Source: an uncultured bacterium (GTDB taxonomy: Bacteria; Lernaellota; Lernaellaia; Lernaellales; Lernaellaceae). From it: 48,814 bases of DNA. A program made the translations under genes and the position numbers. The stretch's first letter is position 1; each line of letters begins with the position of its first letter. Shown in pieces: positions 15,815 through 39,576 of this stretch. A model generated the notes under the pieces. It worked only from the letters and a program-made list of their open reading frames with translations, was not told the DNA's origin and made no database searches. The stretch covers positions 1-48,814 of the forward strand of contig CAZHPN010000020.1 in the NCBI GenBank assembly GCA_964534375.1, given 5' to 3'.

Positions 15815-16669
15815 TTACGCCCGCGCCACGTCGCGGTAGACCCAGGCGCCGGCGACGACGGTCGCCAGCAGAGCGACGGTCATCTGCGCCGGCGGGAAAT
15901 CGTAGTAGTTCGCGATGACGAATCCGGCCGTCCCGGTAAGCAGCGCCACCAGCGGCGCCACGAGCCACATCGGTTCGACTTCCCGGCAGATGTTTTTCGC
16001 CGCGAGGGCCGGCAAAGTCAGGCAACCGAACGTGTACAACATGCCCGAGGTGCGAATCGCGAGGCCCACCGCGAGGCCCAGAATTACGGACGTCGTCGTG
16101 TTCCAGGCGGAGGTATTCATGCCGACGGCTCCGGCCATCGGCGCGTCCATCGTCAACAGAATCAACCGCCGCCGAAAGACGCCGATGAAGATCGCCGTGG
16201 CGGCCGCCGCGCCCGCATACAACGCCACGTCGAAATTCGAGGCGCCGATGATGCTCGACGACAGCAACCGTTGGATTTCTTCCAGACCGTGCGGGCTATG
16301 GGCGACGAACAACACCGAAACGCTGGCGGAAACCAGAAACACCCAACCGGTGATCGCCTCGCGGCTCTCGCGGTTGATTTCGCCGCCGCGGCCGGTGACC
16401 AGCGCCGCCGCCACCGAAAAAATCACGGCCATCGTGGACAGAAAACCGTCCGATTCGACCCAGGTGTTTTCCGCGCCGGCCAACCTGACGCCGAGGCCCA
16501 GCGCCAGGGCGATGCCCAACGTCGACGCTTCCGAGACGGCTGCGCCGAGAAAAAGCTGGTCGCGCGCGACGACGAGGACGCCGACCAACGACAATAACAA
16601 GGCGACCAGCCAGCCGACGAGATAGGTCGTGTGAAACAAATGCCAGGACGAAAGAAACGCGCCGATCAT
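15815..16669 (-). CDS. znuB: Zn/Mn ABC transporter permease (ABC-3, ZnuB/MntB-like)
   Basis: Multi-TM; LVGVLVV..FLGAAVSEASTLGIAL, LTLPALAA and D(F)PPA motifs; ATGA overlap with the ATPase. Confidence 0.85.
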   Translation of the reverse strand: MIGAFLSSWHLFHTTYLVGWLVALLLSLVGVLVVARDQLFLGAAVSEASTLGIALALGLGVRLAGAENTWVESDGFLSTMAVIFSVAAALVTGRGGEINRESREAITGWVFLVSASVSVLFVAHSPHGLEEIQRLLSSSIIGASNFDVALYAGAAAATAIFIGVFRRRLILLTMDAPMAGAVGMNTSAWNTTTSVILGLAVGLAIRTSGMLYTFGCLTLPALAAKNICREVEPMWLVAPLVALLTGTAGFVIANYYDFPPAQMTVALLATVVAGAWVYRDVARA

Positions 16670-17433
16670 AAGCACGCCTCCCCATCGGCCAGTCGAATGC
16701 CGACGCCGCCGCCGTCATCTTGCACGAGCGACACGGCGACGCCGTAGGTCTTCTCGAGCTCTGCGGGAATCAGCACGTCGTCGCCCGTCCCGGACTTTAC
16801 GTGCTGCTCCCGGAACAGCGCCACGTGCGTGGCGTGGCGCGCGACGATCGTCAAATCGTGCGTGACGAACAGCACCGTCAGGCCGTCGTCGCGGTGAAGT
16901 TTTGCCACCGACCGCAACAGGGCGCTTTCCGCCGCGAGATCGAGGCCGTTGGTCGGTTCGTCGACAATCAGAAATCCCGGCCGCCGCACGAGCGCCCGCG
17001 CGACCAGCGCGCGTTGCCGCTGGCCGCCGGAGAGCGCCCAATAGTCTTTATCCGCCAGGCCGGACATCTGCACTTTCTGCAGCGCCCACTCCAAACGGTC
17101 GGCGTATTCCGCGCGCGGGACGGACAGGTTGACCAGGCCCAACAGCACAAATTCGCGCACCGTCGTCGGCAGCGTCGGATTGAGATCGCAGCGTTGCGGC
17201 ACAAAACCGATGCGCTCCGGACAGGCGAATTGCGGATCGAGATTCAACGCGCCGCGACGGGGCGAAAGAGAGCCGAGGATCGCCTTGAGCAGGGTCGACT
17301 TGCCCTCGCCGTTCGGACCGACGAAAAACCAGAACTCGCCTTCGCGGATTTCGAGATTCACGTCACGCAGCACAACCCGCCTTCCATAGCCGAGTTCGAG
17401 GTTCTTCGCTTCGACAATCACCTTGCGGTCCAC
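16666..17433 (-). CDS. znuC: Metal ABC transporter ATP-binding protein (ZnuC-like)
   Basis: GTG start with GAGGAGG RBS; Walker A GPNGEGKST, LSGGQ signature, IVDEPT, VTHD. Confidence 0.9.
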   Translation of the reverse strand: MDRKVIVEAKNLELGYGRRVVLRDVNLEIREGEFWFFVGPNGEGKSTLLKAILGSLSPRRGALNLDPQFACPERIGFVPQRCDLNPTLPTTVREFVLLGLVNLSVPRAEYADRLEWALQKVQMSGLADKDYWALSGGQRQRALVARALVRRPGFLIVDEPTNGLDLAAESALLRSVAKLHRDDGLTVLFVTHDLTIVARHATHVALFREQHVKSGTGDDVLIPAELEKTYGVAVSLVQDDGGGVGIRLADGEACL

Positions 17434-17621
17434 AAATTCCTCCTCACGTACCACCGGCAGGCTCCCGCGCCTGCCGCCCGAAATCTCGGGCGGGGATGGA
17501 ACCCCGCCCGTATACATGCAAGCGTGTCTTTTTAGGCGCGATTCGCGGGCGAGGCAAGCCCTGCTGATGCGCGGATGTGCGAACCGCCGCACGGGGCGGC
17601 GGTCCGCCATCGCCGCGCTGG

Positions 17622-18677
17622 TTATTTGCCAGCGCTCAGCGCGGTCACGATTTGCCGGATGTTGTAATCCGCCATGGAGAGATAGTCGTCCGTTCCCGGA
17701 CGCGCGCCGACCATATTCGCCATCGTCGCCACGTGCGCGCCGGCGTTGCGGGCCACGAAATCCGCATGACGCGGATCGTAGTACGCCGAGGCGAGAATTA
17801 GTTTCGCGCCGTCCGCCTTCATCGTCGCAATGAGTTCCTGCAAGTGATGTGTCGTCGGCGCCAGGCCGGGTTTCGGCTCGAGGTATCCGACCATCACCAA
17901 CCCAAAGCGCTTTGCGAAATACGGCCACAGGCTGTGATCGCCGACGGCTTTGGCGCCGTAGAACGGCTTCATCGCGCCGAGCCAGCCGCCGAGCGCCTGA
18001 TCGTCGCCCTGCTGTTTCAAGAAGGCGTCGAGTTTGCCGACCTCATACAGCGCGGCCAGTTTGGTGGCGTCGTATTTGGCGGCCAGGGTCGGACCGACCA
18101 AAGCCGCGCACATCTGTTGGCGGAACGCGGCGTAATTCGCCTGGAAATACGCCGCCTGCTCCGGCCGCAATTCGGACATCTTTTGGGTGATCAACGCGGC
18201 GACCTTCAGCCCGGCGAGCGGATCCAGCAGAAAATGCGGATTCCCGGCCGGATGCACGTCGCCCAGCGCCCGGTCCAAGCCGCCGGTCGGCACTTCCATC
18301 GGGGCAATCACCCGCGACGAGTCGAGATAACCGGGCGAGCCGGGTTGCACGACGTCGTTGCGGCAGTTCTTGAGCAGGACCGCGCTCCACGCGGCCTCCA
18401 GCTCCATGCCGGTCTCGATGAACAAATCCGCTTCGCTCAGCGCCTTGATGAAGCTCGGCTTCGCTTCGATGAAGTGCGCGTTTTCGGTCCCTTTCGAGAA
18501 CACGGTCAGTTTGATTTCCTTGCCGCCGATCACCCGGGCGAGGCTGCCGACATCGGGCGTCGTGGCGCACACGATCAGCGGGCCCGCCGCGGCGTGGGTC
18601 GCGACGCCGGTGAGGACGACAAGCGCGAGCGCCAGCAGGGCCGCGCTCGCCGCCATGAGTTTTTTCTGCATGTTCAT
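17622..18677 (-). CDS. znuA: Metal ABC transporter substrate-binding protein (cluster A-I, ZnuA-like)
   Basis: Signal peptide; ENAHF, GDVHPAGNPHFLLDP, GDHSL, EPKPG motifs. Confidence 0.9.
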   Translation of the reverse strand: MNMQKKLMAASAALLALALVVLTGVATHAAAGPLIVCATTPDVGSLARVIGGKEIKLTVFSKGTENAHFIEAKPSFIKALSEADLFIETGMELEAAWSAVLLKNCRNDVVQPGSPGYLDSSRVIAPMEVPTGGLDRALGDVHPAGNPHFLLDPLAGLKVAALITQKMSELRPEQAAYFQANYAAFRQQMCAALVGPTLAAKYDATKLAALYEVGKLDAFLKQQGDDQALGGWLGAMKPFYGAKAVGDHSLWPYFAKRFGLVMVGYLEPKPGLAPTTHHLQELIATMKADGAKLILASAYYDPRHADFVARNAGAHVATMANMVGARPGTDDYLSMADYNIRQIVTALSAGK

Positions 18678-18690: not shown

Positions 18691-20301
18691 CTAGAAGTTA
18701 TGCGCCGGATGGGCGCCGTAAAGTATTTCCAAGCTCAACCATACGGAGTTCGCCTCCCCCGTTTTCAGGTGCGTGGCGATGTCGTGGTCGTATTCCAACC
18801 GCAACCGCGAAAAGTGCGTCGGGTTGAAGATGAAAGCCGCCGCCAGGCGCGTGCGGTCGTCGCGCAACGGATCGAGTTTCCGCGCCAGCCGATCGGCGCT
18901 GTCCGTATCGATCGCCGTCGCGTATTCGCCGCGCAACGTCAGCGCCCAATCGCGCACGAAGCCCCAGGTCAAAATCGAGAACACGCCCCAGTCGTTGAAA
19001 TCGCGCGCCGGCAAGTTGACGTTCGTCGTCAGCGGCGTCCCTTTCGCGGTTCCGGTCGGGATCCCGTTCGCCGTAAACTCCTGGGCGTGATAGTCGCGAC
19101 CGATGAACTCGGTCTGCCAGGAGATGAACGGCCAGCCGTATTCGTTGACGGCCGGCCGCCAGCGAACCAGAAAATCGGCGCCGTAAATCCACGCATATCC
19201 TTGCAGCCCGGTTTCGTTCGGGCCGCGCTCGCCGGAGAACCCGAGCAGAACCGAGGAGTCGCCCGGCGACCACGAATTTTCCCAGCGCCCTGAATAAACG
19301 AAGTCGCCTGCCTTGTCCACTCCCCGGTCGAAAATCGGCCGGCCCGCGATGCCGATTTTATAACCGGCGGTGGACAGCGCCCCCGCGTCCTGATAAGCGG
19401 CCACCGCGCCGTTCGGAGTGCCGAGGAAGCTCGGCATTTGTTCGCCGGTGGCGTTTTGCATGTTGACGAGCAGTTGGGAGTACCATGGCGTCGGCATCAG
19501 CCAGCCGATGCGCACGCCGCACCCTCGTTGACCGTCGCCGCCGAACATGCGCGTGATGGGCACGGGTTGAGTGATGTAATCCCACGTGTGCGGGTGCGTC
19601 GCGTTGGTGCGCCCGAACTCGGTAAGGTAATATCCGGCTTTAAATTGGACGGCCGGAATGTTCAGCGTCGTGGCGAAGGCCTCTTCAATCTCCACGCCGT
19701 CTTCTTTAAACACGATGTGCGATTCGCCGTAGAAATACGGATCGACCGCGCCGGAGGCCGAGATTTCCGCCTGCTGCAACGAGAAGCCGTTGCGGCTCGG
19801 ATCGTGGTCGCCGCCCTGCAGAATCGGTATTTGACTCGGCGGCGCCGACGACGCGCCCCCGGCCACCAGGATGTCCATCGAGATGTCGATCAATTTGATT
19901 TCGGCTTTGCCCGCCTTGACCGAGGCCAGGTCCGAACTGGCCGCTTTGGTTGTCGGCGTCGCCGGAACATTGATGTCTTCGACCGCGCGGTCCAGCGCCG
20001 ATTCCGGGCTTTCCGGCGCTTTTGGCGCCGGCGTGGCCTCGGCGGCCGGCTTTTTGGCTTCCAAGTCGGCCACTCGTTTTTTCAATTCTTCGATCAGTTG
20101 TTGATTTTGTTGACCCTGCTGTTGCAGCGCCTCGATTTGTTTGCGCAGCGTGGAAATGGTCGCGCTGGAGTCGTCGGCGGCCCGCGCCGCAGACGCGGCG
20201 GCGATGACGACGATCACCGCGGCCAACCCGATCGCCAAGACGCGCATGCTGCCCCGCAGGTCAAGACGCCCGAATAGCCTTGCTCTCACCTTGTCCTTCA
20301 T
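18691..20301 (-). CDS. Outer-membrane beta-barrel metal receptor (zinc-regulated OM receptor-like) with N-terminal coiled coil
   Basis: GGAGG RBS; signal plus coiled coil; GGDHDP, GAVDPYF, EEAF, NATHPHTW motifs; C-terminus YGAHPAHNF; directly upstream of znuA. Confidence 0.8.
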   Translation of the reverse strand: MKDKVRARLFGRLDLRGSMRVLAIGLAAVIVVIAAASAARAADDSSATISTLRKQIEALQQQGQQNQQLIEELKKRVADLEAKKPAAEATPAPKAPESPESALDRAVEDINVPATPTTKAASSDLASVKAGKAEIKLIDISMDILVAGGASSAPPSQIPILQGGDHDPSRNGFSLQQAEISASGAVDPYFYGESHIVFKEDGVEIEEAFATTLNIPAVQFKAGYYLTEFGRTNATHPHTWDYITQPVPITRMFGGDGQRGCGVRIGWLMPTPWYSQLLVNMQNATGEQMPSFLGTPNGAVAAYQDAGALSTAGYKIGIAGRPIFDRGVDKAGDFVYSGRWENSWSPGDSSVLLGFSGERGPNETGLQGYAWIYGADFLVRWRPAVNEYGWPFISWQTEFIGRDYHAQEFTANGIPTGTAKGTPLTTNVNLPARDFNDWGVFSILTWGFVRDWALTLRGEYATAIDTDSADRLARKLDPLRDDRTRLAAAFIFNPTHFSRLRLEYDHDIATHLKTGEANSVWLSLEILYGAHPAHNF

Positions 20302-20758
20302 GAAACCTCCGTTGCCGCGTAATTCGCGGCGCAATGATCGGCGCGGATTTCGCGTCGATCGTGCCGAACGTTGATTGCCGATCGTTAAAGACGTCACGCC
20401 GAAACGGCGGCGAATGTTTCGGCGCGACGGCCAGGATCGACCTGTGATCCAGCGCGGCGCTCGGTTTCACTTGCGGCGCGAGCGCCCGCAGCACGACCCG
20501 GAGAACCACGACCGCGAACGCGATCGGCCACAATTGGTTCTGGTTCAAGAAAAGCGGAACGATCTGACAGACTTCCGTGGAGTCTTCCGAAATGGCCGGC
20601 GACCCGGGCCGGCCAAAAACCACGGGGCGCTCCTTATGCTCCCAATTTCCCGTAACCGCGTTGAAGAAATGCGGCTCGCTGGCCAGGTGGGCCAGCGCCA
20701 ACAGCGGCCCCGCGAACAACAGCAAGGCCACAAGTTTGGCAACCGCGTTTCTCAACAT
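20261..20758 (-). CDS. Putative metal-sensing leader protein, copy 1 (APKHSPP); read-through extension overlaps the receptor start
   Basis: GGGAG RBS; clear paralogue of 20959..21321 and 28298..28660. Confidence 0.75.
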   Translation of the reverse strand: MLRNAVAKLVALLLFAGPLLALAHLASEPHFFNAVTGNWEHKERPVVFGRPGSPAISEDSTEVCQIVPLFLNQNQLWPIAFAVVVLRVVLRALAPQVKPSAALDHRSILAVAPKHSPPFRRDVFNDRQSTFGTIDAKSAPIIAPRITRQRRFHEGQGESKAIRAS

Positions 20759-20958
20759 TAACTCCCGCGCCACGTCGCGACGCTGCCGCCGGGCACGCTT
20801 CGCCCGCAACTGGCAGCGCCGGGCCGTTGTCGCCCTTCGCTTGGTGAAAATTGCCGGCTCGGGCATTTCCACGCTGCGTCCCACTGAGTGCTTGCCGCGC
20901 ACGAAACGGCGTGCTGCGGCGTTAGTTCAGCAACTTTCGACGAAGACGAATGAATTGA

Positions 20959-21321
20959 TCAAAGGGAAACGGGCGGGGAATTTTTCGGCGCCAACGCCAA
21001 CGTCAATTTGTGGTCGAATGGCTCCGATGCAGGTCGTTGAGAGCGGACTGCCAAGATAACAGCGGCCACGGCAACCATGGCCGCGGCGAGCAACCACATG
21101 CGGTTTTGACTCAAAAACGCGGAATAAATGCGGCAGGTCTCGCGGTCGATCGGCCGCAGGCCCTGCGCTCCAGCGGGCAGTTTCGCCGCGCCGGGCCGCG
21201 CGTGTTCCCACTCGCCGTCCGCGTCGTTGTAGAAATGCGGGACGAGCGCCATGTGCAGCAACGCAAATAACGGCCCCGCGAACAGGAGGAATACGATGAT
21301 TCTCGCGACGCGTTGCTTCAT
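20959..21321 (-). CDS. Putative metal-sensing leader protein, copy 2 (120 aa, ends APKNSPPVSL)
   Basis: GAGAGG RBS; two hydrophobic segments; conserved His/Cys; paralogous to copies 1 and 3. Confidence 0.85.
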   Translation of the reverse strand: MKQRVARIIVFLLFAGPLFALLHMALVPHFYNDADGEWEHARPGAAKLPAGAQGLRPIDRETCRIYSAFLSQNRMWLLAAAMVAVAAVILAVRSQRPASEPFDHKLTLALAPKNSPPVSL

Positions 21322-21347
21322 GGCCTCTCGCTCAAGTTATGGGGCGG

Positions 21348-21376
21348 AATTTATGCTATCGCGGCCCGGTTGTCAA
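21348..21376 (-). promoter_or_regulatory. sigma70 promoter of leader copy 2 and the uptake operon
   Basis: TTGACA-17 nt-TAAATT; same GGTTTTGACA context as the copy 3 promoter. Confidence 0.7.
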
Positions 21377-21470
21377 AACCCGGTCGGCGGCGAGTGCGGC
21401 GACGCGGAAACCCAGGGAGCGATGAACGGCGGGAGAATCAGAAGCGCCGATGACCGCCCGCGTCGAGCGT

Positions 21471-22367
21471 TCACGGTGCATTGCCTTTCACAAGGGCTTG
21501 CGCCAGATCGTGCGTCATTTGCGCGAGCGTGTCGACATAGGCGTGCGGGCCGGTCGGGCCGGACATGCCGGTCTCGACCGTGATCGCCGGCATTCGGACT
21601 TCATCGGCGAACAAATTCCATGTGCGCGGATCGACTTGGCGGTCGGCGAAAATGATCACCGGTCTTTCCTTCTTGAGCTGCTTCATGATCGCCGCGACCT
21701 CGCCCGCGCTGAGGCTGTGGTGCTCGTCGTCCGTCAACGGCGGCCCCGTCTCCAGGCCGGCGTCGCGCGCCAAATAGCTGAACATCGTCGTCGCCAGCGC
21801 GACGCGCTTGTTCGGCAGCGCCTGCACGACCTTCGCGAATTCTTCATGAAGAGCCCGCAAACGCCGCGAGACGGCAATGCCGTTTTCCGCATAGCGCGCC
21901 GCGTTTGGCGGATCGAGTTGCGCCAGCGCCTCGGCCAGCGTCAGCGCCATCGCGGCGCCTTGTTTCGGGCTGACAAACGGGTGCGGTTCGGCGTCGCCGG
22001 GGATTCGTTCGACGTTTTTGTCGAGGCGGATGATCGTCAACTTGGCGCGATAGTTCTCAGCCAACTTATCGAGCCACGGTTCGTAACCCGCCCCGACGGC
22101 AATCAACGCCTTGGCCTTTTCGATTGCCTTCATGTCGCCCGGCTGCAATTGGTAATCGTGCGCGCACCCGGCGGCGATCGGCACGAGTTGGCGCACGTAG
22201 ACGCCGGGCGCGCCGTCGGCGACCGCCAGCGTCAGATTCTGCAACGGCAGGATCGTCGCCACCAAATTCAACGGTTTCCGCGGCCGGACAGCGCCCCGGC
22301 CGAAGGCCGGCGAAGCCAGCGTGGCGCACGCCAGCAACGCGACCGCCAACAGCCATTCGGTTTTCAT
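21471..22367 (-). CDS. Second metal ABC substrate-binding protein (ZnuA/TroA-like)
   Basis: Signal peptide; LVATILPL, GCAHDYQL, EPHPFVSP, LDPPNAARY motifs; GAAGGAG RBS. Confidence 0.85.
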   Translation of the reverse strand: MKTEWLLAVALLACATLASPAFGRGAVRPRKPLNLVATILPLQNLTLAVADGAPGVYVRQLVPIAAGCAHDYQLQPGDMKAIEKAKALIAVGAGYEPWLDKLAENYRAKLTIIRLDKNVERIPGDAEPHPFVSPKQGAAMALTLAEALAQLDPPNAARYAENGIAVSRRLRALHEEFAKVVQALPNKRVALATTMFSYLARDAGLETGPPLTDDEHHSLSAGEVAAIMKQLKKERPVIIFADRQVDPRTWNLFADEVRMPAITVETGMSGPTGPHAYVDTLAQMTHDLAQALVKGNAP

Positions 22368-22441
22368 GATGCGTTCTCTCCTTCAGCGCCGACGCGCACG
22401 CTGCCGTCAAGCAGTCGATTGTCGATGCCCGAGGGGCGTGT

Positions 22442-25400
22442 TCAGTCGGTTGTCTCCACAGTCTTTTCCTTCTCCACCATCGGGTAGAGGATCGGCAAGA
22501 TCAGCAACGTCAATATCGTCGCCGTGACCAGCCCGCCGATAATGACCACCGCGAACGGTTGCGCGGTTTCGGCGCCGACCCTGTCCGACAGGGCGACTGG
22601 CAGCAGGCCGAGGATCGCCATCGAACTGATCATCGTGTCGACGCGGGCGCGGGAAACGGCGCCTTCGACGACCGCTTCCAGCATCGGTTTTCCTTCCAGC
22701 CGCAATTGCCGGATGCGCTCGACCAGGATGACGCCGCTTTGGATCGCGACGCCGAAGAGCGCAATGAAGCCGACCATCGAGGACACCGACAAGTTCAAGT
22801 GCGCGATCGGCAGCGCCAGAATGCCGCCCACTGCGGCGAACGGCACGCACAGCAGGATCAAGCCCGCCAGGCGGCCGGATGAGCCGAACGCCGAAAACAG
22901 CAGGAAGAACATGGCGAGCAGCGTCAGCGGAATCACGACCATCAGGCGTTTCGTGGCCCGTTGCTGGTTTTCGAACGCGCCCGCCCACGTGACCCGATAG
23001 CCTCGCGGCATTTTTTTGAGTTCCGGATCGGCCGCTTTCCGGGCGTCGGCGACCACGGAACCCAAAGCGCGGTCGCGCACGCCGAACTTGACGGCGATGC
23101 CGCGCGCGTTCTCCTCGCGATACAACTTGACGAAGCCCGAGGCCACCTTGACGGTCGTCACGGCGCCGAGCGTCAATCGTTCGCCGTTCGCGCCGAAAAT
23201 GGGAATATTGCGAATCGAATCCAGGTCGGACACCGCGCGGGGCGCCAGTTTCACCGTCAGGTCGAACGTCCGCTCGCCTTCCAACACCTGCGTCGCCACG
23301 CCGCCGCCCATCGCTGTTTCGACCACCGTTTGGACGTCCGAAACGCTCAGCCCGTACCGGGCGATCGCGTCGCGATCGACGGCGATTTGAATTTGCGGCT
23401 GCCCCATCAGTTGTTCGGCGCTGACATCCACGGCGCCCGGAATATTTTTGATCGCCACCGTCAAATTGTCGGCCGTTTTTTGCAGGATGGCCGGGTCTTC
23501 GCCGAAGATTTTGATGCTCAGTTCGCTTTTGATTCCGGAGACGGCCTCGTTGATCATATCTTCCATATATTGACTGAATTGCGGGTCGATTCCGGGGATG
23601 GTCTTCAGCTTGGCCCCCATCGCGTCGCACAACTTCTCGCGCGTCTTTGCGGTCGTCCACTCCGACCGCGGCGTCAATCCGACGCCGAATTCGCAAATGT
23701 CGAACCCGTTGTTGTCGGTGCCGTCATCCGGGCGGCCGATGTTGCTGAATACATCGATCACCTCGGGAAACGACATCAAGATTTCGCGCATTTTTCTCAC
23801 CACGCGCGCCGATTCGGACGGCGAAATCGTCGGCGGCATGAACACGCGGACCCACAGCGTGCCCTCGTCGAGCTTCGGCAAAAACTCGGTGCCCATCAGC
23901 GCCAAACAGACGCCGGCCGCGAACAACAAGGCCGCGACCCCTGCGAGAGCTTTCTTCCGGTGGCGGATCACGCCCAGCAGCAGGGGGCGATACCAACGGA
24001 GCAGCGCATGGACAAGGCGGGAATGCTTCAGCACGACTTTCTTCCGCAACGCAAAACTCGCCATCACCGGCACGATCGTCAGCGCAAGCAGCGTTCCGGC
24101 GATCACCGCGAAGGTCAGCGTCAGCGCCATCGGCTTAAAGATGCGGCCTTCGACGCGTTGCAGCGAATACAGCGGGATGAACGCCGTCAGCAGAATCGCC
24201 TTAGCGAACAGGATCGGCCGGCCCATTTGCGACACGGCATCGATAATGGTCGTTGTGAGCGGGGTGGGGTGGTCTTTTCGCTCTTCCATCAACCGCAGGA
24301 TGTTCTCGATAATCACGACCGAGGAATCGACAATGATGCCAAAATCGATGGCGCCCATCGAAATCAAGTTCGCTGGAATGTGGCGCAGATCGAGCAGAAA
24401 AAACGCCCCGAGCAGCGACATCGGCACGACCGAGCCAACGACCAACGCCGAGCGGTAATTCCCCAGCCCCAGAAACAGCATCAGCACGCCCAACACCAGG
24501 AGGATGCCGGTGATCATGTTGTGGCGCACGGTATAAAGCGTCAGGTCAAGCAACGGCTCCCGATCGTAGTGCAAGGCGACTTTGACCCCGGGGGGCAGCA
24601 AGCGCTCGTTGATTTCGTCGACCTTCGCGTGGATCCGTTTCAATACTTCGCGCGCGTTCTCCCCGCGCTTCATCCAGGGGTTGCCTTGCGGGATGTCGTC
24701 GTTGTCCACCCAGTTTTGCGCCGTCGCGGCGACCGGCTGCCCGGCGCTCCGCTCCGGGCCCCGGCCAATGAACCACCCGTTCCGGAGAGACAACCCGACC
24801 TGATTCAAACGCACCTTCTCACCGATCACGACCGCGCCGACGTCGCGAATGCGGATCGGCACGCCGTTACGCGTATCCACGGCGATCGCCCCGATGTCTT
24901 CCGTGTTCTGGACGAACCCCAGGCCGCGCACAATGTACAGTTCTGAGCCGTGTTCCACGTAGGAGCCGCCGGCGTTGCGGTTGCCGTTCGACAGGGCGTC
25001 GAACACCTGTTTCACGGACACGTTGTAGGAGCGCAATTTTTGCGGATCGACCAGCACTTGATATTCTTTGATCGGTCCGCCGAAGCCGCTCGCGTCGACG
25101 ACGCCCGGGACGGTTTTCAACTGCCGTTCGACGACCCAGGTCATCAGCGCTTTCAATTCCACGCCGGAGAAACCGGGCGGCGCCGTCATCATGTACCGGC
25201 AAACGTCGCCGATGGGGGTCGTGTCCGGCGACAGCGAGGCCTGCGCGCCCGCCGGCAAAGTCACTTCCGTCATGTGCTGGAAGGCCAGGTTGCGGACCAA
25301 GTCGCTGTTGGCGTCGTCGGCAAAAACCATCGTCACCACGGACAGCCCGAACAGCGAAAACGACCGCATGGACACCCGCTTGGGAATGCCGTTCATTTCG

Positions 25401-25615
25401 CTTTCGATCGGAATTGTGACGAGCTTTTCCACTTCCTCGGCGGCATGGCCCGGAAACAGCGTGATGATTTGCAATTCCAGGTTCGTCACGTCGGGATAGG
25501 CGTCGACCGGCAACGTGATGCAGGAGTGCACGCCAAAAAAAACGAACACCACCGTCAAGAACAGCAAGACGGCGCGGTGTTTCAGGGCGTAGGCGGTGAG
25601 TTTGCCCATCGTCAT
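22442..25615 (-). CDS. czcA: CusA/CzcA family heavy-metal efflux RND permease
   Basis: LPVDAYPDVT, EEVEKLVTIPIE, PANLISMGAIDFGIIVD, GTEFLPKLDEG, FAVVIIGGL motifs; ATGA overlap with the MFP gene. Confidence 0.92.
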   Translation of the reverse strand: MTMGKLTAYALKHRAVLLFLTVVFVFFGVHSCITLPVDAYPDVTNLELQIITLFPGHAAEEVEKLVTIPIESEMNGIPKRVSMRSFSLFGLSVVTMVFADDANSDLVRNLAFQHMTEVTLPAGAQASLSPDTTPIGDVCRYMMTAPPGFSGVELKALMTWVVERQLKTVPGVVDASGFGGPIKEYQVLVDPQKLRSYNVSVKQVFDALSNGNRNAGGSYVEHGSELYIVRGLGFVQNTEDIGAIAVDTRNGVPIRIRDVGAVVIGEKVRLNQVGLSLRNGWFIGRGPERSAGQPVAATAQNWVDNDDIPQGNPWMKRGENAREVLKRIHAKVDEINERLLPPGVKVALHYDREPLLDLTLYTVRHNMITGILLVLGVLMLFLGLGNYRSALVVGSVVPMSLLGAFFLLDLRHIPANLISMGAIDFGIIVDSSVVIIENILRLMEERKDHPTPLTTTIIDAVSQMGRPILFAKAILLTAFIPLYSLQRVEGRIFKPMALTLTFAVIAGTLLALTIVPVMASFALRKKVVLKHSRLVHALLRWYRPLLLGVIRHRKKALAGVAALLFAAGVCLALMGTEFLPKLDEGTLWVRVFMPPTISPSESARVVRKMREILMSFPEVIDVFSNIGRPDDGTDNNGFDICEFGVGLTPRSEWTTAKTREKLCDAMGAKLKTIPGIDPQFSQYMEDMINEAVSGIKSELSIKIFGEDPAILQKTADNLTVAIKNIPGAVDVSAEQLMGQPQIQIAVDRDAIARYGLSVSDVQTVVETAMGGGVATQVLEGERTFDLTVKLAPRAVSDLDSIRNIPIFGANGERLTLGAVTTVKVASGFVKLYREENARGIAVKFGVRDRALGSVVADARKAADPELKKMPRGYRVTWAGAFENQQRATKRLMVVIPLTLLAMFFLLFSAFGSSGRLAGLILLCVPFAAVGGILALPIAHLNLSVSSMVGFIALFGVAIQSGVILVERIRQLRLEGKPMLEAVVEGAVSRARVDTMISSMAILGLLPVALSDRVGAETAQPFAVVIIGGLVTATILTLLILPILYPMVEKEKTVETTD

Positions 25616-26742
25616 TTCCCCGCGTATTCGAGCAATTGCTGCAGGAGCAGGCTGCCGTCCGTCACGAGGCGGTGGCCGGCCATTAAACCGCCGGTCACAT
25701 TGATTTTGCCGGCGTGTTCGCCGGCGATCTGGACCTCGTGCCGCGCGAACCGGCCCTTGCCCTCGTCGACGAACACGAAGTATTTGCCCTCTTTCACAAA
25801 AACGGCGCGCTTCGAGATCGCCATTTCCGGCGCGGCGCTTTTTTCCACATCCACCGTGACGTACATCTCGGCCTTCAGCGCCCGCGTCGGGTTGTCGACG
25901 CTGCCGCGCGCTTTGACCGTCCGGGTGCTCGGATCGAGCGCATCGGTGATAACGTTCAACGTCCCGGGGAACAGGTCCGTGGGATAAGCCTGCGTATAAA
26001 CTTTGAAGATTTGTCCGGGGTGCAGCGACGACAAATCTTTTTCCGCGACGTCCATCTGCAACCACAGTTTCGTCGGGTCGGTCACGACAAACATCGGCGG
26101 CATGGCCGAAATCAGTTCATCGGGCCGGACTTCGCGCCCGATGCTCAGATTCCGTTCGACGACCACGCCGGCGACCGGGCTGCGCAAAGTGAAGGCGCCC
26201 GCCGTTTCCGCGCCGATCGAGCCGACGTTCGCCAGCCTCGTCAACGCCCGCTCTTTCTCGGCGCGCGCCCGGCCGAAATCGGCCTCCGCCCCCTCTACAT
26301 CTTTTTTCGCGGCGGCCCCGTGATCGAACAAGTCGCGCATCCGCGACAAGGCGCGGTCGGTTTGCACGAAGTCGCTCTCCGCCTTGCGCGCATCCGCCTT
26401 CGCCTGGCCGAAATCCGGCGAATCGATCAGCGCCAGCGCCTGGCCTTTGGCCACGGGCTTGCCGATATCGACGAAGATTTCGCGCACGCGGCCGGCGAGC
26501 GGCGCAAAAACGCGCGCGGTGACGTCGTCGTTCCACATCAACCGGCCGGTCATCTGAATGAACGAGCCTTGCCGTATTTCGACCGGCTCGATCGTCAGCG
26601 ACGCGAGTTGCGCGGGGTCGTTCAGGGTCAGGCGGTCCCCGACGACTTCATAAGGCCGATTTCCGTCCGCGGCCCCGGCCCGGGCGCAGCCGGTGAACGC
26701 GGCCGAAAAAATGACCATCGCAATTACGAAGAAGGTTTTCAT
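25612..26742 (-). CDS. czcB: RND efflux periplasmic adaptor (CzcB-like lipoprotein)
   Basis: Lipobox FTGC; APLAGRV, SPDFGQA, LRSPVAGVV, LDPSTRTVK motifs. Confidence 0.9.
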   Translation of the reverse strand: MKTFFVIAMVIFSAAFTGCARAGAADGNRPYEVVGDRLTLNDPAQLASLTIEPVEIRQGSFIQMTGRLMWNDDVTARVFAPLAGRVREIFVDIGKPVAKGQALALIDSPDFGQAKADARKAESDFVQTDRALSRMRDLFDHGAAAKKDVEGAEADFGRARAEKERALTRLANVGSIGAETAGAFTLRSPVAGVVVERNLSIGREVRPDELISAMPPMFVVTDPTKLWLQMDVAEKDLSSLHPGQIFKVYTQAYPTDLFPGTLNVITDALDPSTRTVKARGSVDNPTRALKAEMYVTVDVEKSAAPEMAISKRAVFVKEGKYFVFVDEGKGRFARHEVQIAGEHAGKINVTGGLMAGHRLVTDGSLLLQQLLEYAGK

Positions 26743-26778
26743 GGCTTGCCTCTTCCCAGGGTTCAAACCCCGGGTAAA

Positions 26779-26820
26779 TTGTGCATTGTTCATTGTTCAT
26801 CGTTCATTGCTCACTGTTCA
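26779..26820 (-). repeat. Six-unit heptamer array TGAACAG TGAGCAA TGAACGA TGAACAA TGAACAA TGCACAA
   Basis: Read directly; starts at the czcC stop codon. Confidence 0.8.
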
Positions 26821-28116
26821 CTGTTTTCCGAGCGCCGCTTTCAGCGACGCCGCCGCGGCGGCGGTGTCGCTCGCCGCTTGGGCCGCGCCCAGGCGGACAT
26901 CGTTGTCGTTGCGTTCCGCCGACAGCAGATCGAGCAGCGAGGCGTTGCCCTTTTCATAGGCGTACGCCACGGCGAGCCGGACCTGCGCCGACCGTTGTCG
27001 AATTGAATCGCGATAGGCCCGCCAACGTAATTTGGCCGCCCGATACGCCGCCCGCGCCGTCAGCACGTCGGCGGCGATTTGCGCTTGCGTCTTCTCGACG
27101 GCGAGGCGCGCCTGCTCACTCGCGGCGGCGGCGGTGTGGACCGCGCCGAGGTTGAAATTCCAAAAAGGCAACGGCAGGCTCAGGCCGAAGCCGACCGTGT
27201 TCGGCTGCGCGGGCGGCTCGCGTTCGTACTGCGCGCTGATCGTCAAATCGGGAATCGCCATCGCCTTTTGCGAGCGGACATCCGCTTCGGCTTTTCGTTG
27301 CGCCGTTTGGGCCGCGACCAGGTCCGGACGCGGCCCCGCCGGCTCCTGCCCCTCGCCCGCCTCGACCTCCGCCAAGGCGTCCAGAGTTTCGACCGCCTTC
27401 CATTGGCCCGTCGGTTGCGAAATGCCTAGCAACGTCTCCAAGGCGATCCGCGCCGAAACGGCGGCCACCGCGGCAGTGTCCGCGTCGAGGTCGAAGCGTT
27501 CCGCCGCGATTTCAATCTGAATTTTGTCGGTGACCGAAATGTCGCCGGCCTTCAGCCGAACCGCCGCGATCTCGGCCTCTTTGCGCAAGGTCGCAGCCGA
27601 CGCTTTCAGAATCCGCACGTTCTCCTCGGCCTGCACCGCCGCAACGTAACCGTTGGCGACGTTCAGATTGAGCAGCCGTTTGGCGTCGAGAAAGCGCGCG
27701 CGGGCGCTTTGCAGCCCCGCCGCCGCAGAATCCTGCCGGTGGCCGCGCTTGCCCAATTCGAAAAACTCGCTCACCCCGGCGGTAGTGTCGTAATTGCGCT
27801 CGAAAAAGCCGTTCCCCATCGTGGTCCGGCTCGTTCGATCGACATTAATCAGGGTTTCCGAGAGATTCAGCGTCGGATTCGGAAACTCGCGGGAGGTTTC
27901 GTCGACGCCCTTCGCCGCGTCCACATCGCCGCCGGCGGTGAGCAAATCCCAGTTGTTCTGCACGGCGAGGCGCTGCGCCTCGGCCAGCGACAGCGTCGCC
28001 GGCGCAGCGGTCGAGTCTGCAGCGCCGGTGACAGCCGGAACCGCGACGCCCCACAACGCCGCAATTAATCCGGACAACGCCCAAGCAAAGGTTGGCCCAA
28101 GCCAAAGCTTCTGCAT
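26818..28116 (-). CDS. czcC: TolC-family outer-membrane efflux protein (CzcC-like)
   Basis: AAGGAG RBS; LSLAEA..AVQNN, PNPTL, RPDL, LSLPLPFWNFNLG, AYEKGNASLLDLL OEP motifs. Confidence 0.9.
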   Translation of the reverse strand: MQKLWLGPTFAWALSGLIAALWGVAVPAVTGAADSTAAPATLSLAEAQRLAVQNNWDLLTAGGDVDAAKGVDETSREFPNPTLNLSETLINVDRTSRTTMGNGFFERNYDTTAGVSEFFELGKRGHRQDSAAAGLQSARARFLDAKRLLNLNVANGYVAAVQAEENVRILKASAATLRKEAEIAAVRLKAGDISVTDKIQIEIAAERFDLDADTAAVAAVSARIALETLLGISQPTGQWKAVETLDALAEVEAGEGQEPAGPRPDLVAAQTAQRKAEADVRSQKAMAIPDLTISAQYEREPPAQPNTVGFGLSLPLPFWNFNLGAVHTAAAASEQARLAVEKTQAQIAADVLTARAAYRAAKLRWRAYRDSIRQRSAQVRLAVAYAYEKGNASLLDLLSAERNDNDVRLGAAQAASDTAAAAASLKAALGKQ

Positions 28117-28297
28117 CGAAGGCTCCTTTACGCAACCCGATCGGCGGCAACTTACGCCGCGCACAAGCCGTTCGTTTATGATTTCGCTCGCCGCGAACAT
28201 TCGCGGGCCGCTTTGTCAGTCTTGTCGGGACTGCAATCTGGACGCCGCGCCGCGACAGGATCGTTGGCGAATGTTGACGACGGCGACGGTAAGGAGG

Positions 28298-28660
28298 CTA
28301 GGCAGACGTCGGTGGGGAGTTCTTCGGGGCCAGAGCCAAGGTCAGTTTGTGATCGAATGGTGCAGATGCAGGTTGCGGCGAATTCACCGTCAAGAGGACG
28401 GCAACCAGGGCCGCGATTGCCGCCGCCAGCACCCACATGCGGGTTTGATTCAAAAATGTCGCGTATATCTCGCAGGTCTCGCGGTCGACTGCTCGGAGGC
28501 CGCGCGACCCATCAGGAATCGGCGCCGCGCCTGGTCGCGGGTGTTCCCACTCGCCCGTGGCGCCGTTGTAGAAATGCGGAATGAGGGCCATGTGCAGCAA
28601 CGCGAGCAACGGCCCGGCAATCAGGAGGAATACGATAATTTTCGCGATACGTTGCTTCAT
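28298..28660 (-). CDS. Putative metal-sensing leader protein, copy 3 (120 aa, ends APKNSPPTSA)
   Basis: GAGG RBS; same length (363 nt) and colinear with copy 2. Confidence 0.85.
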   Translation of the reverse strand: MKQRIAKIIVFLLIAGPLLALLHMALIPHFYNGATGEWEHPRPGAAPIPDGSRGLRAVDRETCEIYATFLNQTRMWVLAAAIAALVAVLLTVNSPQPASAPFDHKLTLALAPKNSPPTSA

Positions 28661-28685: not shown

Positions 28686-28714
28686 AACCTACACCTGCGC
28701 GGCTCCGATGTCAA
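28686..28714 (-). promoter_or_regulatory. sigma70 promoter of leader copy 3 and the czcCBA operon
   Basis: TTGACA-17 nt-TAGGTT. Confidence 0.6.
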
Positions 28715-32916: not shown

Positions 32917-33510
32917 CTACGGTTGTTTCGGCTCCTCGGGCGTCGGCTCCTCGGCGGCCGGCGGCGTTTCGACCGGCACGGTCTCGTCCGGCGCCGCGGG
33001 GGCTGGTTCCTCGGCCGGGGCCGGCGCCGCTTTTTCGGCTTCGGCCTTGACCTTGGGCTTGCCGCGTCGTTTGGCGGCCGATTTCTTGCTCTTTTCGGCC
33101 ACTTCTTCGTCGGCGGCGAGGAATTCGATAAAGCTGACGCGGGCGCCGTCGCCGATGCGGTCGCCGACTTTGATGATCCGCGTGTAGCCGCCGGAGCGAT
33201 CGGCGAAACGGGCCGCGAGTTCGTCGAACAATTTGGTCACGGCGTCTTTGTCGCGCACGAAGGCCAACGCCTGGCGCCGCAGATGCAGCTTGCGCGCGGC
33301 GATGGAGGTGTCGGCGGCGTTCTCGCCGAGGGCGCGGGCGCGTTTGGCGATCGTCACCATTTTTTCGACGTAGTGACGGAGTTCTTTCGCCTTTTCGTTC
33401 GTCGTCTTGATCCGCTCGTGGACGATCAGACTGGTGGTCATGTTCCGCCACATGGCGTAGCGGTGCGTCGAGTTGCGGTTGAATTTTCTTCCGGTTTTCA
33501 GATGGCGCAT
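32917..33510 (-). CDS. rplQ: 50S ribosomal protein L17 with C-terminal extension
   Basis: [26 protein letters not shown]. Confidence 0.97.
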
Positions 33511-33551
33511 CGTTCTTCCCTTCTAACTCCCGACTTCGTTCTCCCGGCTGC

Positions 33552-34547
<996 letters not shown>

Positions 34548-34587
34548 CGTTCAACTCCCTTTCCGGTCGGCTCGTTCGGTCGCCGTG

Positions 34588-35217
34588 TTACTTCGAATAC
34601 AACTCGACGATCAACTTCTCGTTGATCGTGCCGCCAATCTCTTCGCGGGTCGGATTGGATTTCACCTCGCCTTCGAGCTTGTCGGGGCGGATTTCCAACC
34701 AGGGCGGCGTCTGGCGGCGGCCCATGGCCTCGACCGCCTCGACAATCAACGGAACTTTCCGGCTCTGCTCGCGCACCGCGACGGTCTGGCCGGGTTTGAC
34801 GATGGCGCTGGGCACGTTGGTCTTGCGGCCATTGATGGCGAAATGGCCGTGTCGCACCATCTGCCGCGCCTGCCGCCGGCTCGCGGCGAAACCCATGCGG
34901 AAGACGACGTTGTCCAGGCGGCGTTCGAGCAACGACAGCAGGTTGTCGCCCGTGACGCCCTGCATGCGCTCGGCCTTGGCGAAGTAGCCGCGGAATTGCC
35001 GCTCCAGAATGCCGTAGTAGCGCTTCGCTTTTTGTTTCGCGCGAAGCTGGGCGCCGTAATCGCTCGACTTGCCGCGCCGCTGCCAATGCTGGCCTGGGAT
35101 TTGTTCCTTGCGGCGTTCAAAGGCGCACTTGTCGGTGAAACAGCGATCGCCCTTCAAAAACAGTTTCTCGCCTTCGCGGCGGCAATATCTGCAAACAGGT
35201 CCGGTATACTTTGCCAA
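34588..35217 (-). CDS. rpsD: 30S ribosomal protein S4 (Zn-binding form)
   Basis: TTG start; CRYCRRE..C....[18 protein letters not shown]. Confidence 0.98.
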
Positions 35218-35229
35218 TGTCCGTCCTCC

Positions 35230-35619
35230 TTAGACGCGCCGCCGCTTCGGCGGCCGGCAACCATTGTGCGGAATCGGGGTCTCGTCGCGGATCATCGTGA
35301 TCTTGAAGCCGCAGGCCAGCAGGCTGCGCAGCGCGGCTTCGCGGCCCGGCCCGGGCCCCTTCACGAGGATCGACAACTGCTGGACGCCATGTTCGCCGGC
35401 TTTGCGCGCGGCGTCTTCGGCGGCGAGCTGGGCGGCGAACGGCGTGCCTTTGCGGCTGCCCTTGAAGCCCTGCGTGCCGCTGCTGGACCAGCACAGGGTG
35501 TTGCCGGACGCATCGCTGATCGTCACGATCGTGTTGTTGAACGTGCTCTTAATATGGGCCACGGCCTGCGGCACGTTCTTCTTGATCTTCTTTTTAGCAC
35601 CGCGCTTGGGGGATGCCAT
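35230..35619 (-). CDS. rpsK: 30S ribosomal protein S11
   Basis: [24 protein letters not shown]. Confidence 0.98.
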
Positions 35620-35637
35620 CGATTACCCTCCCGTTCC

Positions 35638-36003
35638 TTACTTTTTCCGGCCCATCGTCCGGCGCGGCCCTTTGCGCGTCCGAGCGTTGGTGTGGGTGCG
35701 CTGGCCGCGCACGGGCAGACCGCGGCGATGGCGCAGCCCACGATAGGCGCCCAGGTCCATCAGCCGTTTGATGTTCATCTGCGTTTCTTTGCGCAGATCG
35801 CCTTCGACCTTGACCTTCGCGTCGATGATCTGGCGGATGCGCGCGACCTGGCCGTCCGTCAACTTGGCGGCGCGGACCGACTGGTCGATCCCCGCTTCCT
35901 CCAGAATCTTCTGGCTCGTCGTGCGGCCGATTCCGTAGATGTAGGTGAGCGCGATCACGATCCGTTTGTCGTTCGGAATGTCGACGCCTGCTATACGTGG
36001 CAC
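35638..36003 (-). CDS. rpsM: 30S ribosomal protein S13
   Basis: [22 protein letters not shown]. Confidence 0.98.
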
Positions 36004-36016
36004 TGGCTGCCTCCTT

Positions 36017-36130
36017 CTATCCTTGGCGCTGCTTGTGCTTGGGGTTTTCGCAAATGATCCGCACCACGCCCTTGCGCCGGATCACCTTGCACTTGTTGCA
36101 ACGCTTTTTCACCGATGCTTGCACTTTCAT
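36017..36130 (-). CDS. rpmJ: 50S ribosomal protein L36 (Zn ribbon); absent from the ORF track
   Basis: Manual translation [45 protein letters not shown]. Confidence 0.97.
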
Positions 36131-36166
36131 ACTCGCTCCTTAACCCAACGAATCAGATATCAAACG

Positions 36167-36385
36167 TCACTTCGCCCGATAGGTAATCCGGCCGCGCGTC
36201 AAATCGTACGGGGAAAGCTCCACCGTCACCTTGTCGCCCGGCAGGATCTTGATGTAATGCATGCGCATCTTGCCGGAGATGTGCGCCAGCACTTGGTGGC
36301 CGCTGTCCAACTGCACGCGAAACATCGCGTTGGGCAACGGTTCGATCACCCGGCCTTCCACCTCGATCGCCCCTTCTTTCGCCAT
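36167..36385 (-). CDS. infA: Translation initiation factor IF-1
   Basis: [25 protein letters not shown]. Confidence 0.98.
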
Positions 36386-36396
36386 TTGCTTCCTTC

Positions 36397-37795: not shown

Positions 37796-37798
37796 TGG

Positions 37799-39103: not shown

Positions 39104-39576
39104 CGCTTTGCCCTCGCCGGCTTTTGAATTTGTTCGAACGCGCCGCCCGCGGCGACGATCTTCTCCACCGCCTGCTTCGAGGCCTTGTGGGCCTTCACCT
39201 TCAGCGGCTGGGTCAATTCGCCGTCGGCCAGGATTTTCAAGCCGTCTTTCGCGAGCTTCCGCACGAGTTTCTTGGCGATCACGGTCTCCGGATCGACCAC
39301 GTCGCCGGCCTGAAAGTGCGTCGCGATTTCGGTCAGATTGAGGATCGAGAATTCCTTGCGGAACAGATTGCGGAACCCGCGTTTCGGCAGGCGCCGCTGC
39401 AGCGGCATCTGGCCGCCCTCGAACCCGGGGCCTTTCGTGCCGCCCGCGCGCGCCCGCTGGCCTTTGTTGCCGTGGCCCGCCGTCCGGCCCAGGCCCGACG
39501 CTTCGCCGCGGCCGCGGCGCTTGGTGTTTTTCCGCTCCCGCTTGGCCGGCGGTTTGAGATTGCCGAGGTGAATCAT
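39100..39576 (-). CDS. rplO: 50S ribosomal protein L15
   Basis: GFEGGQMPLQRRLPKRGF. Confidence 0.97.
   Translation of the reverse strand: MIHLGNLKPPAKRERKNTKRRGRGEASGLGRTAGHGNKGQRARAGGTKGPGFEGGQMPLQRRLPKRGFRNLFRKEFSILNLTEIATHFQAGDVVDPETVIAKKLVRKLAKDGLKILADGELTQPLKVKAHKASKQAVEKIVAAGGAFEQIQKPARAKR

Follow-up and report, generated by a model that had tools for sequence, protein, structure and literature searches.

Among Proteobacteria, a few copper systems, namely CruR, CutF and CopL, are known to use metal-sensing leaders that act co-translationally. Here, three paralogous leader genes, c1, c2 and c3, are described from a contig of an uncultured bacterium of the family Lernaellaceae, phylum Lernaellota (GenBank assembly GCA_964534375.1, contig CAZHPN010000020.1). 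The stretch analysed, 48,814 nucleotides (nt) in length, is called the window, and all positions are numbered along it. On balance, we favour a reading of c1, c2 and c3 as metal-sensing leaders of the CruR/CutF kind that work in cis by a pause or arrest of translation and would control access to the next cistron at a Ser-Pro-Pro sequence. This reading draws on family membership, on conservation of a terminal motif and its spacing at the level of the peptide, on gene context and on predicted RNA pairings.

CruR (Bp2923) of Bordetella pertussis is described as an exported DUF2946 protein and the prototype of PF11162. It has 45 residues between its CXXC and RAPP sequences, a distance conserved within 1-2 residues, and RAPP lies 3 residues from the C-terminus. 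CruR heads the operon of a TonB-dependent transporter, and copper is reported to relieve the arrest, letting Rho end transcription (PMC9426467). In the account given for CutF of Rhodobacter capsulatus, periplasmic copper leads to a stall on the proline-rich end of the protein, upon which a stem-loop over the Shine-Dalgarno (SD) sequence of cutO opens (10.1101/2025.02.05.636593). Ozturk et al. 2023 report 5,334 CutF-like proteins in 29 clusters, with Cys, His or mixed ligands; OEP/RND genes are their commonest neighbours, TonB-like genes the next, and His-only clusters adjoin HupE/UreJ (PMC9973294). The proteins come mainly from Pseudomonadota and Bacteroidota, with other phyla minor, and in two supplementary text files of that paper no mention of Myxococcota or related names was found (PMC9973294). 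The kind of system described here is therefore already in print, as CutF-like proteins upstream of OEP/RND and TonB genes, His-only clusters included (PMC9973294), and the clade reported below may already be present, unnamed, within the published network.

RAPP-like peptides provide the second point of comparison. Fujiwara et al. 2024 describe arrest at (R/Q/H)(A/G/D)(P/G/S)(P/G), the P-site being occupied by the third residue (PMC10987492). Their queries included RSPP, an NSP-stop class (uA_NSP-stop) was found, and most RAPP-like sequences in ordinary proteins are reported not to stall (PMC10987492).

Three leader genes and their operons

All three genes lie on the minus strand. c3 (28298..28660) encodes a leader of 120 amino acids (aa) and heads an RND efflux operon; c2 (20959..21321), likewise of 120 aa, is the first of two tandem leaders; and c1 (20261..20758) comprises 165 aa from the ATG at 20758, with a conserved body of 118 aa and a tail of 47 aa that overlaps the start of a porin gene. 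The original prediction had named three open reading frames (ORFs) of about 120 aa, with starts at 20758, 21321 and 28660 and one shared layout, and this was confirmed by the ORF list and by an alignment of the three proteins (A1) in which 41 columns are invariant. Each leader consists of an N-terminal hydrophobic segment with AGPL, the pattern H23-x5-H29-x10-H40, E-x-C63-x-I, a second hydrophobic segment, DH, and LAxAPK(H/N)SPP; the invariant columns include H23/H24, P-H29, W-E-H40, E-x-C63-x-I, D-H and A-P-K-x-S-P-P. In the N-terminal segment, basic residues precede a stretch of 19 residues with Kyte-Doolittle values of 2.25-2.59. For both hydrophobic segments of each leader, which would span a membrane, the values are 2.06-2.59 over 19 residues. 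The codons of the proposed pause or arrest motif are located at 28310..28330 in c3 (APKNSPP, residues 111-117), at 20971..20991 in c2 (APKNSPP) and, according to A1, at 20405..20425 in c1 (APKHSPP, residues 112-118).

The c2 and c3 proteins are 73% identical. Between the two genes the nonsynonymous (dN) and synonymous (dS) divergences are 0.17 and 0.96 (dN/dS ~0.18), and codon positions 1, 2 and 3 differ at 23, 18 and 52 sites. GC content at third codon positions (GC3) is 0.71-0.80 in the leaders, and an SD word precedes the ATG of each of them. The excess of third-position changes, the low dN relative to dS and the high GC3 indicate that c1-c3 are genuine genes evolving as proteins and not chance frames, and their likeness is not due to chance. 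A search of the whole genome returned exactly these three copies. Contigs from three metatranscriptomic libraries were 100% identical to parts of the cluster, matching c3 in 3 runs and c2 in 2, and also the end of c1 with the start of the porin gene, the porin gene itself, the ZnuA gene and the ABC genes; no such contig fell on the RND genes among the matches listed. These contigs show presence only and are silent on expression level and attenuation.

Pfam and NCBIfam searches confirmed that c3 heads czcCBA followed by a substrate-binding protein gene, as originally predicted. The order on the minus strand is c3, a czcC-like outer-membrane efflux protein (26818..28116; PF02321 OEP, E 6e-36, with TolC-family NCBIfam matches), a czcB-like, HlyD-type membrane-fusion adaptor (25612..26793; HlyD_D23; TIGR01730, 144 bits), a heavy-metal efflux RND pump of the czcA/cusA family (22442..25615; ACR_tran, 752 bits; TIGR00914, 853.1 bits against a cut-off of 701.45) and a ZnuA-type substrate-binding protein that ends the operon (21471..22367; PF01297, E 2e-44). 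The last of these genes is an odd partner for an exporter. The second operon, also on the minus strand, runs from c2 through c1 to a porin-like outer-membrane protein of 536 aa with an N-terminal coiled coil (18691..20301), a ZnuA-type substrate-binding protein (17622..18677; PF01297, E 2.5e-40), a znuC-like ABC ATPase (16666..17454; ABC_tran) and a znuB-like ABC-3 permease (15815..16675; PF00950). Here the predicted order of an outer-membrane receptor and znuACB behind copies 2 and 1 stood for znuACB and failed for the receptor, which is replaced by a porin-like protein with no Plug or TonB domain.

The tail of c1 had been left without an account in the original prediction and probably results from a frameshift. 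In c1, 47 residues follow SPP, and they overlap the start of the porin gene at 20301. In the shifted frame directly after PP the sequence reads V-S-A-stop, which resembles the ends of c2 (PPVSL-stop) and c3 (PPTSA-stop). The GC content of the tail at codon positions 1/2/3 is 0.57/0.53/0.57, which is not a coding composition, compared with a GC3 of 0.80 in the c1 body. The simplest reading is a 1-base deletion. An identical c1 sequence was found in two metagenome contigs (L093 and L095), so the tail is not an error of one assembly, although the two contigs and the window may go back to a common source. The tail (20261-20404, minus) extends 41 nt beyond the ATG of the porin gene; ribosomes translating c1 would therefore pass over the porin start site.

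The features that mark CutF-like leaders recur in the window. Such leaders have fewer than 150 aa and an N-terminal signal peptide or anchor; c2 and c3 have 120 aa and the c1 body 118 aa, and their hydrophobicity suggests export. They end in a proline motif, and in c2 and c3 PP lies 3 residues from the stop codon, as had been predicted. They carry a metal-binding Cys/His motif at a conserved distance from the proline motif, and a putative counterpart is present here at the sequence level. Finally, a gene of metal homeostasis follows on the same strand within 1000 nt: the gap between c3 and the OEP gene is 181 nt, and c1 heads the porin-ZnuACB genes.

Like CruR, the window leaders have a putative N-terminal export signal, candidate ligands about 45 residues before a terminal x-x-P-P and PP 3 residues from the stop codon, and they head an outer-membrane metal-uptake operon with a long intergenic region (PMC9426467). 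Unlike CruR as described there, they have the ligands H-x5-H...H...C in place of CXXC and APKxSPP in place of RAPP, and they target a porin with ZnuABC as well as an RND pump where CruR has a TonB-dependent transporter, yet 32 of 55 relatives head such receptors. Their metal is probably not copper. As in CutF, an exported nascent sensor is combined with a C-terminal proline motif and with mRNA structure hiding the next SD (PMC9973294; 10.1101/2025.02.05.636593), features that are predicted in the present case, whereas CutF itself is reported to use CxxxC and PPP, to need EF-P and to control a multicopper oxidase. With x = H or Q, x-S-P-P resembles the arrest motifs HAPP, QAPP and RSPP and the NSP-stop class (PMC10987492). 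c1 carries H-S-P-P, and c2 and c3 carry N-S-P-P; N is absent from the first residues published for the RAPP-like motif (PMC10987492). Unlike the RAPP-like peptides SecM, ApcA, ApdA and ApdP, which monitor Sec/YidC, the window leaders precede metal transporters and not secA, secDF or yidC (PMC10987492), have an invariant A-P-K before x-S-P-P and show no overall sequence likeness to them. The window system thus shares anatomy and context, and probably ancestry as well, with the CruR/CutF kind. It departs from that kind in the A-P-K-x-S-P-P motif, the ligand set, the lineage, the porin-ZnuABC target and the tandem arrangement of c2 and c1, with three paralogues covering uptake and efflux.

CzcI of Cupriavidus metallidurans is, like c3, a small protein encoded directly upstream of czcCBA, and it falls within the CutF-like network, in cluster 20 of the sequence similarity network (SSN), where it was suggested to be a metal-sensing regulator (PMC9973294). 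The czcI position of c3 and the second hydrophobic helix of the window-type proteins are compatible with membrane-bound regulators acting in trans on a signalling partner, as proposed for CzcI. We consider such a role very improbable. By its description, CzcI is set apart from c3 as a protein without a C-terminal proline motif that is thought to be a regulator; the motif is lacking in CzcI2 as well (PMC9973294), whereas it is the most conserved feature here. No kinase, sigma factor or DNA-binding partner was detected by Pfam scan in the window cluster. More broadly, the predicted absence of Fur, Zur, MerR and two-component regulators held for the window ORFs scanned with Pfam, among which no Fur, MerR or two-component gene was found, and did not hold genome-wide, since two Fur-family genes are present on other contigs.

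Conservation of ligands and terminal motif in a wider family

A word-index search with c3 alone returned only the window's own proteins. A hidden Markov model (HMM) search with A1, which covered 1.8 billion representative proteins, identified a closest relative of 120 aa (P0004, E 2.7e-34) and seven distant relatives of 116-144 aa (E 1e-6 to 8e-4); P0006 from the same search was rejected as a repeat-protein false positive. A profile search added eleven proteins (P0013-P0023), of which P0023 is a 69-aa fragment. The downstream gene of P0004 lies outside the available sequence, as its contig L096 ends 80 nt past the stop codon and L097 is a fragment. Sub-alignment A4, scanned against species-representative genomes, yielded 64 loci with 67 leader copies, mostly in Myxococcota assemblies, including Cystobacter fuscus and Hyalangium, with a few titled Planctomycetota or Gemmatimonadota. 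In total, the profile searches gave 85 non-redundant relatives, mostly from Myxococcota. When 121 genomes were drawn evenly from one phylum, probably Myxococcota, 42 of them, the centre genome included, contained a member at E <=1e-5 (profile A3). Multi-leader clusters are not unique to the window, since L071 has three leaders (ends 3064, 7195 and 11972) and L079 two (3214 and 7330) within 10 kb.

Among 60 relatives of the window genome, profile A1 found no credible match (best E 0.0095, a partial match inside a 688-aa frame), and no family member was found in 7 relatives of the same family and 9 of the same class (G001-G016). Three copies in this genome, none in these 16 genomes and a common occurrence in another phylum would fit acquisition by transfer. 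Foldseek comparison of the c3 model with the PDB gave no match at E up to 0.001, an ESM Atlas search with c3 returned unnamed clusters with best feature scores of 0.79-0.80, below the meaningful level, and a literature text search for APKxSPP-type motif strings returned no paper. From their sequences, c1-c3 are not orphans and belong to a widespread, unnamed and divergent clade.

Conservation was counted over the 85 non-redundant members in c3 numbering, and gaps and termini over 84 aligned members. H23 is present in 85/85, H29 in 84/85, G36 in 79/85, H40 in 70/85 and C63 in 84/85; position 32 is Cys in 80/85 and Asn in four window-type proteins. A sensor based purely on His, as first envisaged, is therefore not what the family shows. 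A-P-K and P-P are each found in 85/85 and S115 in 83/85; of the 85 members, 44 have N directly before the motif Ser, 16 have Q, 8 T, 8 A and 5 H. C63 and APK are separated by 42-48 residues, and by 45-47 in 73/84, and the stop codon follows 1-6 residues after PP in 83/84 members, the exception being c1. In 63 distinct motif segments, Ala is encoded by all four of its codons, each Pro by 3-4, Ser by all four UCN codons and Lys by both. Such varied synonymous codons argue that the motif is selected as a peptide. The expectation that homologues keep the terminal motif was thus borne out. Members that carry the motif include 9 leaders found solely by an N-terminal pattern, which have other residues at x, 3 extra copies matched by neither scan pattern and each of the 18 full-length proteins that the HMM and word searches returned.

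If the favoured reading is right, the clade would extend a principle known from copper to new ligands and a new terminal motif, APKxSPP, and to probable zinc-type or other divalent-metal transport, through ZnuABC and a porin dedicated to it, unusual receptors fused to TonB_C, and a pump of CzcA type. It would also carry the principle into new lineages: in one large phylum about one third of the genomes sampled have a member, and every copy there is either unannotated or called 'hypothetical'. The window offers a natural comparison, with near-identical sensors before an importer and an exporter, and the idea can be tested at the bench since cultured bacteria, Cystobacter fuscus and Hyalangium, carry members. 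For annotation, a class of 120-aa genes mostly missed by gene callers and Pfam would predict metal regulation of the operon behind.

The original prediction had called the leaders analogous to DUF2946 leaders. The likeness in layout and context was upheld, and homology, rather than analogy only, is now probable. Two relatives pass the PF11162 gathering cut-off of 23.7 bits (P0018 with 26.0 bits and L071:11559 with 24.6 bits), and P0021 and P0005 score 22.1 and 18.7 bits. At E <=0.1, PF11162 matches 3/18 P proteins and 10/65 L leaders, all co-linear and near full length; 11 more members match below the cut-off (2/18 P and 9/65 L, with P0021 in both sets). PF11162 is the sole Pfam family matched repeatedly among the relatives. 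Judged by these scores, the clade is probably remotely homologous to DUF2946 and not merely analogous to it, and the Pfam model mostly misses it. Since the window copies give no match and two relatives lie above the cut-off, the DUF2946 membership of the window copies is only transitive, through the clade's own profile. For a profile-profile comparison, nothing usable as a canonical DUF2946 was found in the genome itself, in 60 relatives, 5 locus genomes, 61 genomes of the same phylum as G066 or 401 relatives, and a tblastn search of plasmids with P0018 returned nothing usable.

The expected linkage of homologues to metal transport was found. A simple ORF caller gave a same-strand next gene for 55 leaders, and in 45 of these it was of TonB-receptor type or a porin homologue. 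The 32 TonB-receptor types were mostly of TonB_C, Plug and barrel composition, four being contig-cut or short; the 13 porin genes were homologues of the window porin (BLASTP E 3e-51 to 2e-4). The remaining 10 next genes were other or unknown, among them an ECF (extracytoplasmic function) sigma factor, TPR proteins, a kinase and several with no family. A ZnuA gene followed 8 of the 13 porin homologues, and ABC ATPase and ABC-3 permease genes followed one; the order leader, porin, ZnuA, ZnuC/B therefore recurs in Myxococcota, Planctomycetota and Gemmatimonadota records. The receptors behind Myxococcota leaders (L022:7448-10150, L039:7452-10172 and about 25 more) have an extra N-terminal TonB_C domain before Plug and barrel, and their best NCBIfam match is a partial one to the myxochelin receptor MxcH.

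An AlphaFold2 (AF2) model of c3 (predicted local distance difference test, pLDDT, 77.8; predicted template modelling score, pTM, 0.52) contains helices at 2-26 and 64-92, a low-confidence tail and a sheet of three strands (30-32, 37-41 and 60-62) that brings the ligand positions together. A small fold modelled with fair confidence around a conserved His/Cys cluster would suit the main rival to a cis-acting leader, namely that the leaders are trans-acting, exported or membrane-anchored metal-binding proteins (a chaperone, metallophore-like shuttle or plug) that hand metal to the porin, receptor or pump, the APKxSPP tail being a docking peptide. The window-type proteins have two membrane-type hydrophobic segments, the partners are always envelope transport proteins, and the extra TonB_C domain of many receptors could bind a peptide. 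This explanation is nevertheless unlikely in our view. Distant members are only 18-30% identical to c3 and poorly conserved outside the motifs, and most relatives lack the second hydrophobic segment, which is restricted to the window type. A docking role would leave unexplained the position of the motif at the very end, its fixed spacing from the Cys, the rare-codon bias and the codon-SD pairing described below. CruR, CutF and CopL are moreover reported to act only in cis, and CutF to be undetectable in vivo (PMC9973294, PMC9426467).

Predicted RNA pairing and codon choice at the Ser-Pro-Pro codons

In the cis-acting mechanism proposed here, the N-terminal hydrophobic segment would target the nascent leader chain to the membrane. 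Because of this targeting, the His/Cys cluster (H23, H29, H40 and C63) would already have left the ribosome, and probably the cytoplasm too, by the time the Ser-Pro-Pro codons about 50 residues on are reached. The ribosome would dwell on these codons owing to slow formation of the Pro-Pro bond in the RAPP-like context x-S-P-P (x = N, Q or H). The dwell time would change when the exposed part binds metal or folds, and would in turn determine how far the next cistron is expressed. Export, metal binding, stalling and the regulatory sign are the steps that we infer.

The c2-c1 intergenic region (20759..20958, minus) contains the SD of c1, GGGAG, at about 20762-20766. In the predicted fold, this SD pairs with UUCCC of the c2 motif, which runs from the Asn codon across the Ser codon to the first base of the first Pro codon, with a probability of ~1.0 by partition function. 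The modelled mean accessibility of the SD was 0.003 in the free RNA, 0.38 with a ribosome on the second Pro codon, 0.39 with a ribosome at the stop codon and 0.003 with a control ribosome 45 nt upstream. In 15 Polyangiales-type loci with a spacer of 57-61 nt, RNAalifold paired UCACCUCCUGCC, the Ser-Pro-Pro-Ala codons, with GGCAGGAG..GUGA ending at the receptor start codon, with two small hairpins between the paired arms; 96.3% of cells were paired, against 28-41% when the partners were slid. The 4 porin-ZnuA loci, whose spacer is 110 nt long, are predicted to pair UCGCCUCC with GGAGGACGA and are too alike for covariation. Since the Ser-Pro-Pro codons of c2 and of two Myxococcota clades are predicted to pair with the next SD, a ribosome on them would free that SD.

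These helices would equally serve plain coupling upstream ORFs, in which translation of the last codons opens the SD helix with no metal-dependent pause, and a Zur/Fur-type repressor acts at both promoters. In the model the c2-c1 helix opens to much the same degree under a terminating and under a paused ribosome (0.39 vs 0.38), the c1 tail runs over the start of the porin gene, and the genome has two Fur-family genes. Plain coupling is still improbable: it needs neither an invariant A-P-K-x-S-P-P peptide with free synonymous variation, nor a conserved His/Cys cluster at a fixed distance, nor an export signal. A promoter-like sequence before c2, TTGACA-17-TAAATT (21348..21376, minus), was found by a scan at 10/12 matches, with 1 found against 0.2 expected. 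The corresponding sequence before c3, TTGACA-17-TAGGTT (28686..28714, minus), was read by eye and lies below the scan threshold, so that the scan did not report it. The upstream regions of c2 and c3 share a GGTTTTGACA block. With the settings used, no operator-like inverted repeat was found in either promoter region, a further point against the coupling alternative with its repressor.

The c3-czcC intergenic region (28117..28297, minus) differs in layout. Its first 60 nt are C-rich and G-poor, the anti-SD-like CCUCCUUAC stands right after the stop codon of c3, and the SD AAGGAG lies 6 nt before the ATG at 28116. In a short fold, CCUCCUUAC pairs with this SD. The C/G ratio of the first 60 nt after the c3 stop codon is 1.67, compared with background 95th and 99th percentiles of 1.50 and 1.80; the value for c2 is 1.38. 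This C-richness would suit CruR-like Rho loading and gives a hint, no more, of a Rho-dependent variant of the mechanism, which the stretch after the c3 stop codon would also allow.

Codon choice at the motif departs from that of neighbouring genes. The S, P and P codons end in A or T in 28/62, 33/63 and 28/63 cases (45%, 52% and 44%), against 13-18% in neighbouring genes, whereas the Pro codon of APK does so in 4/63 (6%). In the 63 segments (L022-L085 and the window) the motif Ser is always UCN, with AGY in 0/62 compared with 36% AGY among Ser codons of neighbouring genes, and UCA and CCU, which are rare in these GC-rich genomes, are the commonest or near-commonest motif codons. CCU-CC is the complement of GGAGG, and UCACCUCCU is identical to the 3' end of 16S rRNA. 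This complementarity and likeness would explain the bias toward A/T-ending codons. A bolder version of the favoured reading would make the Ser-Pro-Pro codons a doubly coded switch: the K-x-S-P-P peptide would pause the ribosome, and the UCN-CCU-CCN RNA would mimic the anti-SD end of 16S rRNA and hide the next ribosome-binding site, so that pause and SD unmasking would be one event. The three paralogues would then drive zinc-type uptake and heavy-metal efflux in opposite directions, and c2 and c1 would form a two-stage translational relay before a new class of metal-selective porin. Taken as a whole, this version is rather doubtful.

Several points weigh against the reading of c1-c3 as cis-acting pause or arrest leaders. 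The fairly confident model of c3, with its sheet and second membrane-type helix, means that the protein could be a stable membrane protein. Of the 67 genome-derived leaders, 55 were found with a scan pattern that contains the motif, which brings a risk of circularity to its conservation among them. None of c1, c2 and c3 matches PF11162 even at E up to 10, or any Pfam or NCBIfam family, and the NSPP of c2 and c3, the majority form, lies outside the tested (R/Q/H)(A/G/D)(P/G/S)(P/G) set (PMC10987492). The same ligand set before uptake and efflux genes demands opposite logic, for which the reading gives no account, and both promoters could be under trans regulation by the two Fur-family genes on other contigs. 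At the RNA level, the Polyangiales-type alignment (A5) shows a compensatory change in 2/20 pairs, a count reached by 45/500 shuffles. The p-values for codon usage ignore the relatedness of the segments and are thus inflated, and Pro-Pro codons are inherently complementary to GGAGG. The c1 fold shows no SD sequestration, and with more 3' context the main partners of the czcC SD lie inside czcC. Synonymous-codon resampling gave 8/51 loci at <=0.05 and a mean z of -0.57 (c3 z +0.40, c2 z -0.49), in a test where many downstream starts came from a crude ORF caller.

The porin-like protein and neighbouring genes

The identity of 18691..20301 as a TonB-dependent receptor was rejected, as the protein has neither PF07715 nor PF00593 and, coiled-coil noise aside, searches up to E 1 placed it in no Pfam or NCBIfam family. 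Its AF2 model (pLDDT 66.9) consists of a coiled coil followed by a porin-type barrel, and in Foldseek it comes closest to OprP, OprO and DcaP (E 4e-11 to 5e-10). Neither Pfam nor NCBIfam has a model for the family to which it belongs, whose features are a coiled coil at the N-terminus and invariant E-E and H-x-H residues. Homologues include L054:7524-8912, L060:4710-5870, L075:7472-8665, L073:942-2162 and 9 more, and in records of several phyla a member stands between the leader and the ZnuA gene. The family may provide ZnuABC with a dedicated metal channel that works independently of TonB.

A few genes upstream of the metal cluster, on the same strand, there is a large block of ribosomal-protein, rpoA and secY type (32917-48809, minus), which was called from ORF sizes and translations only.

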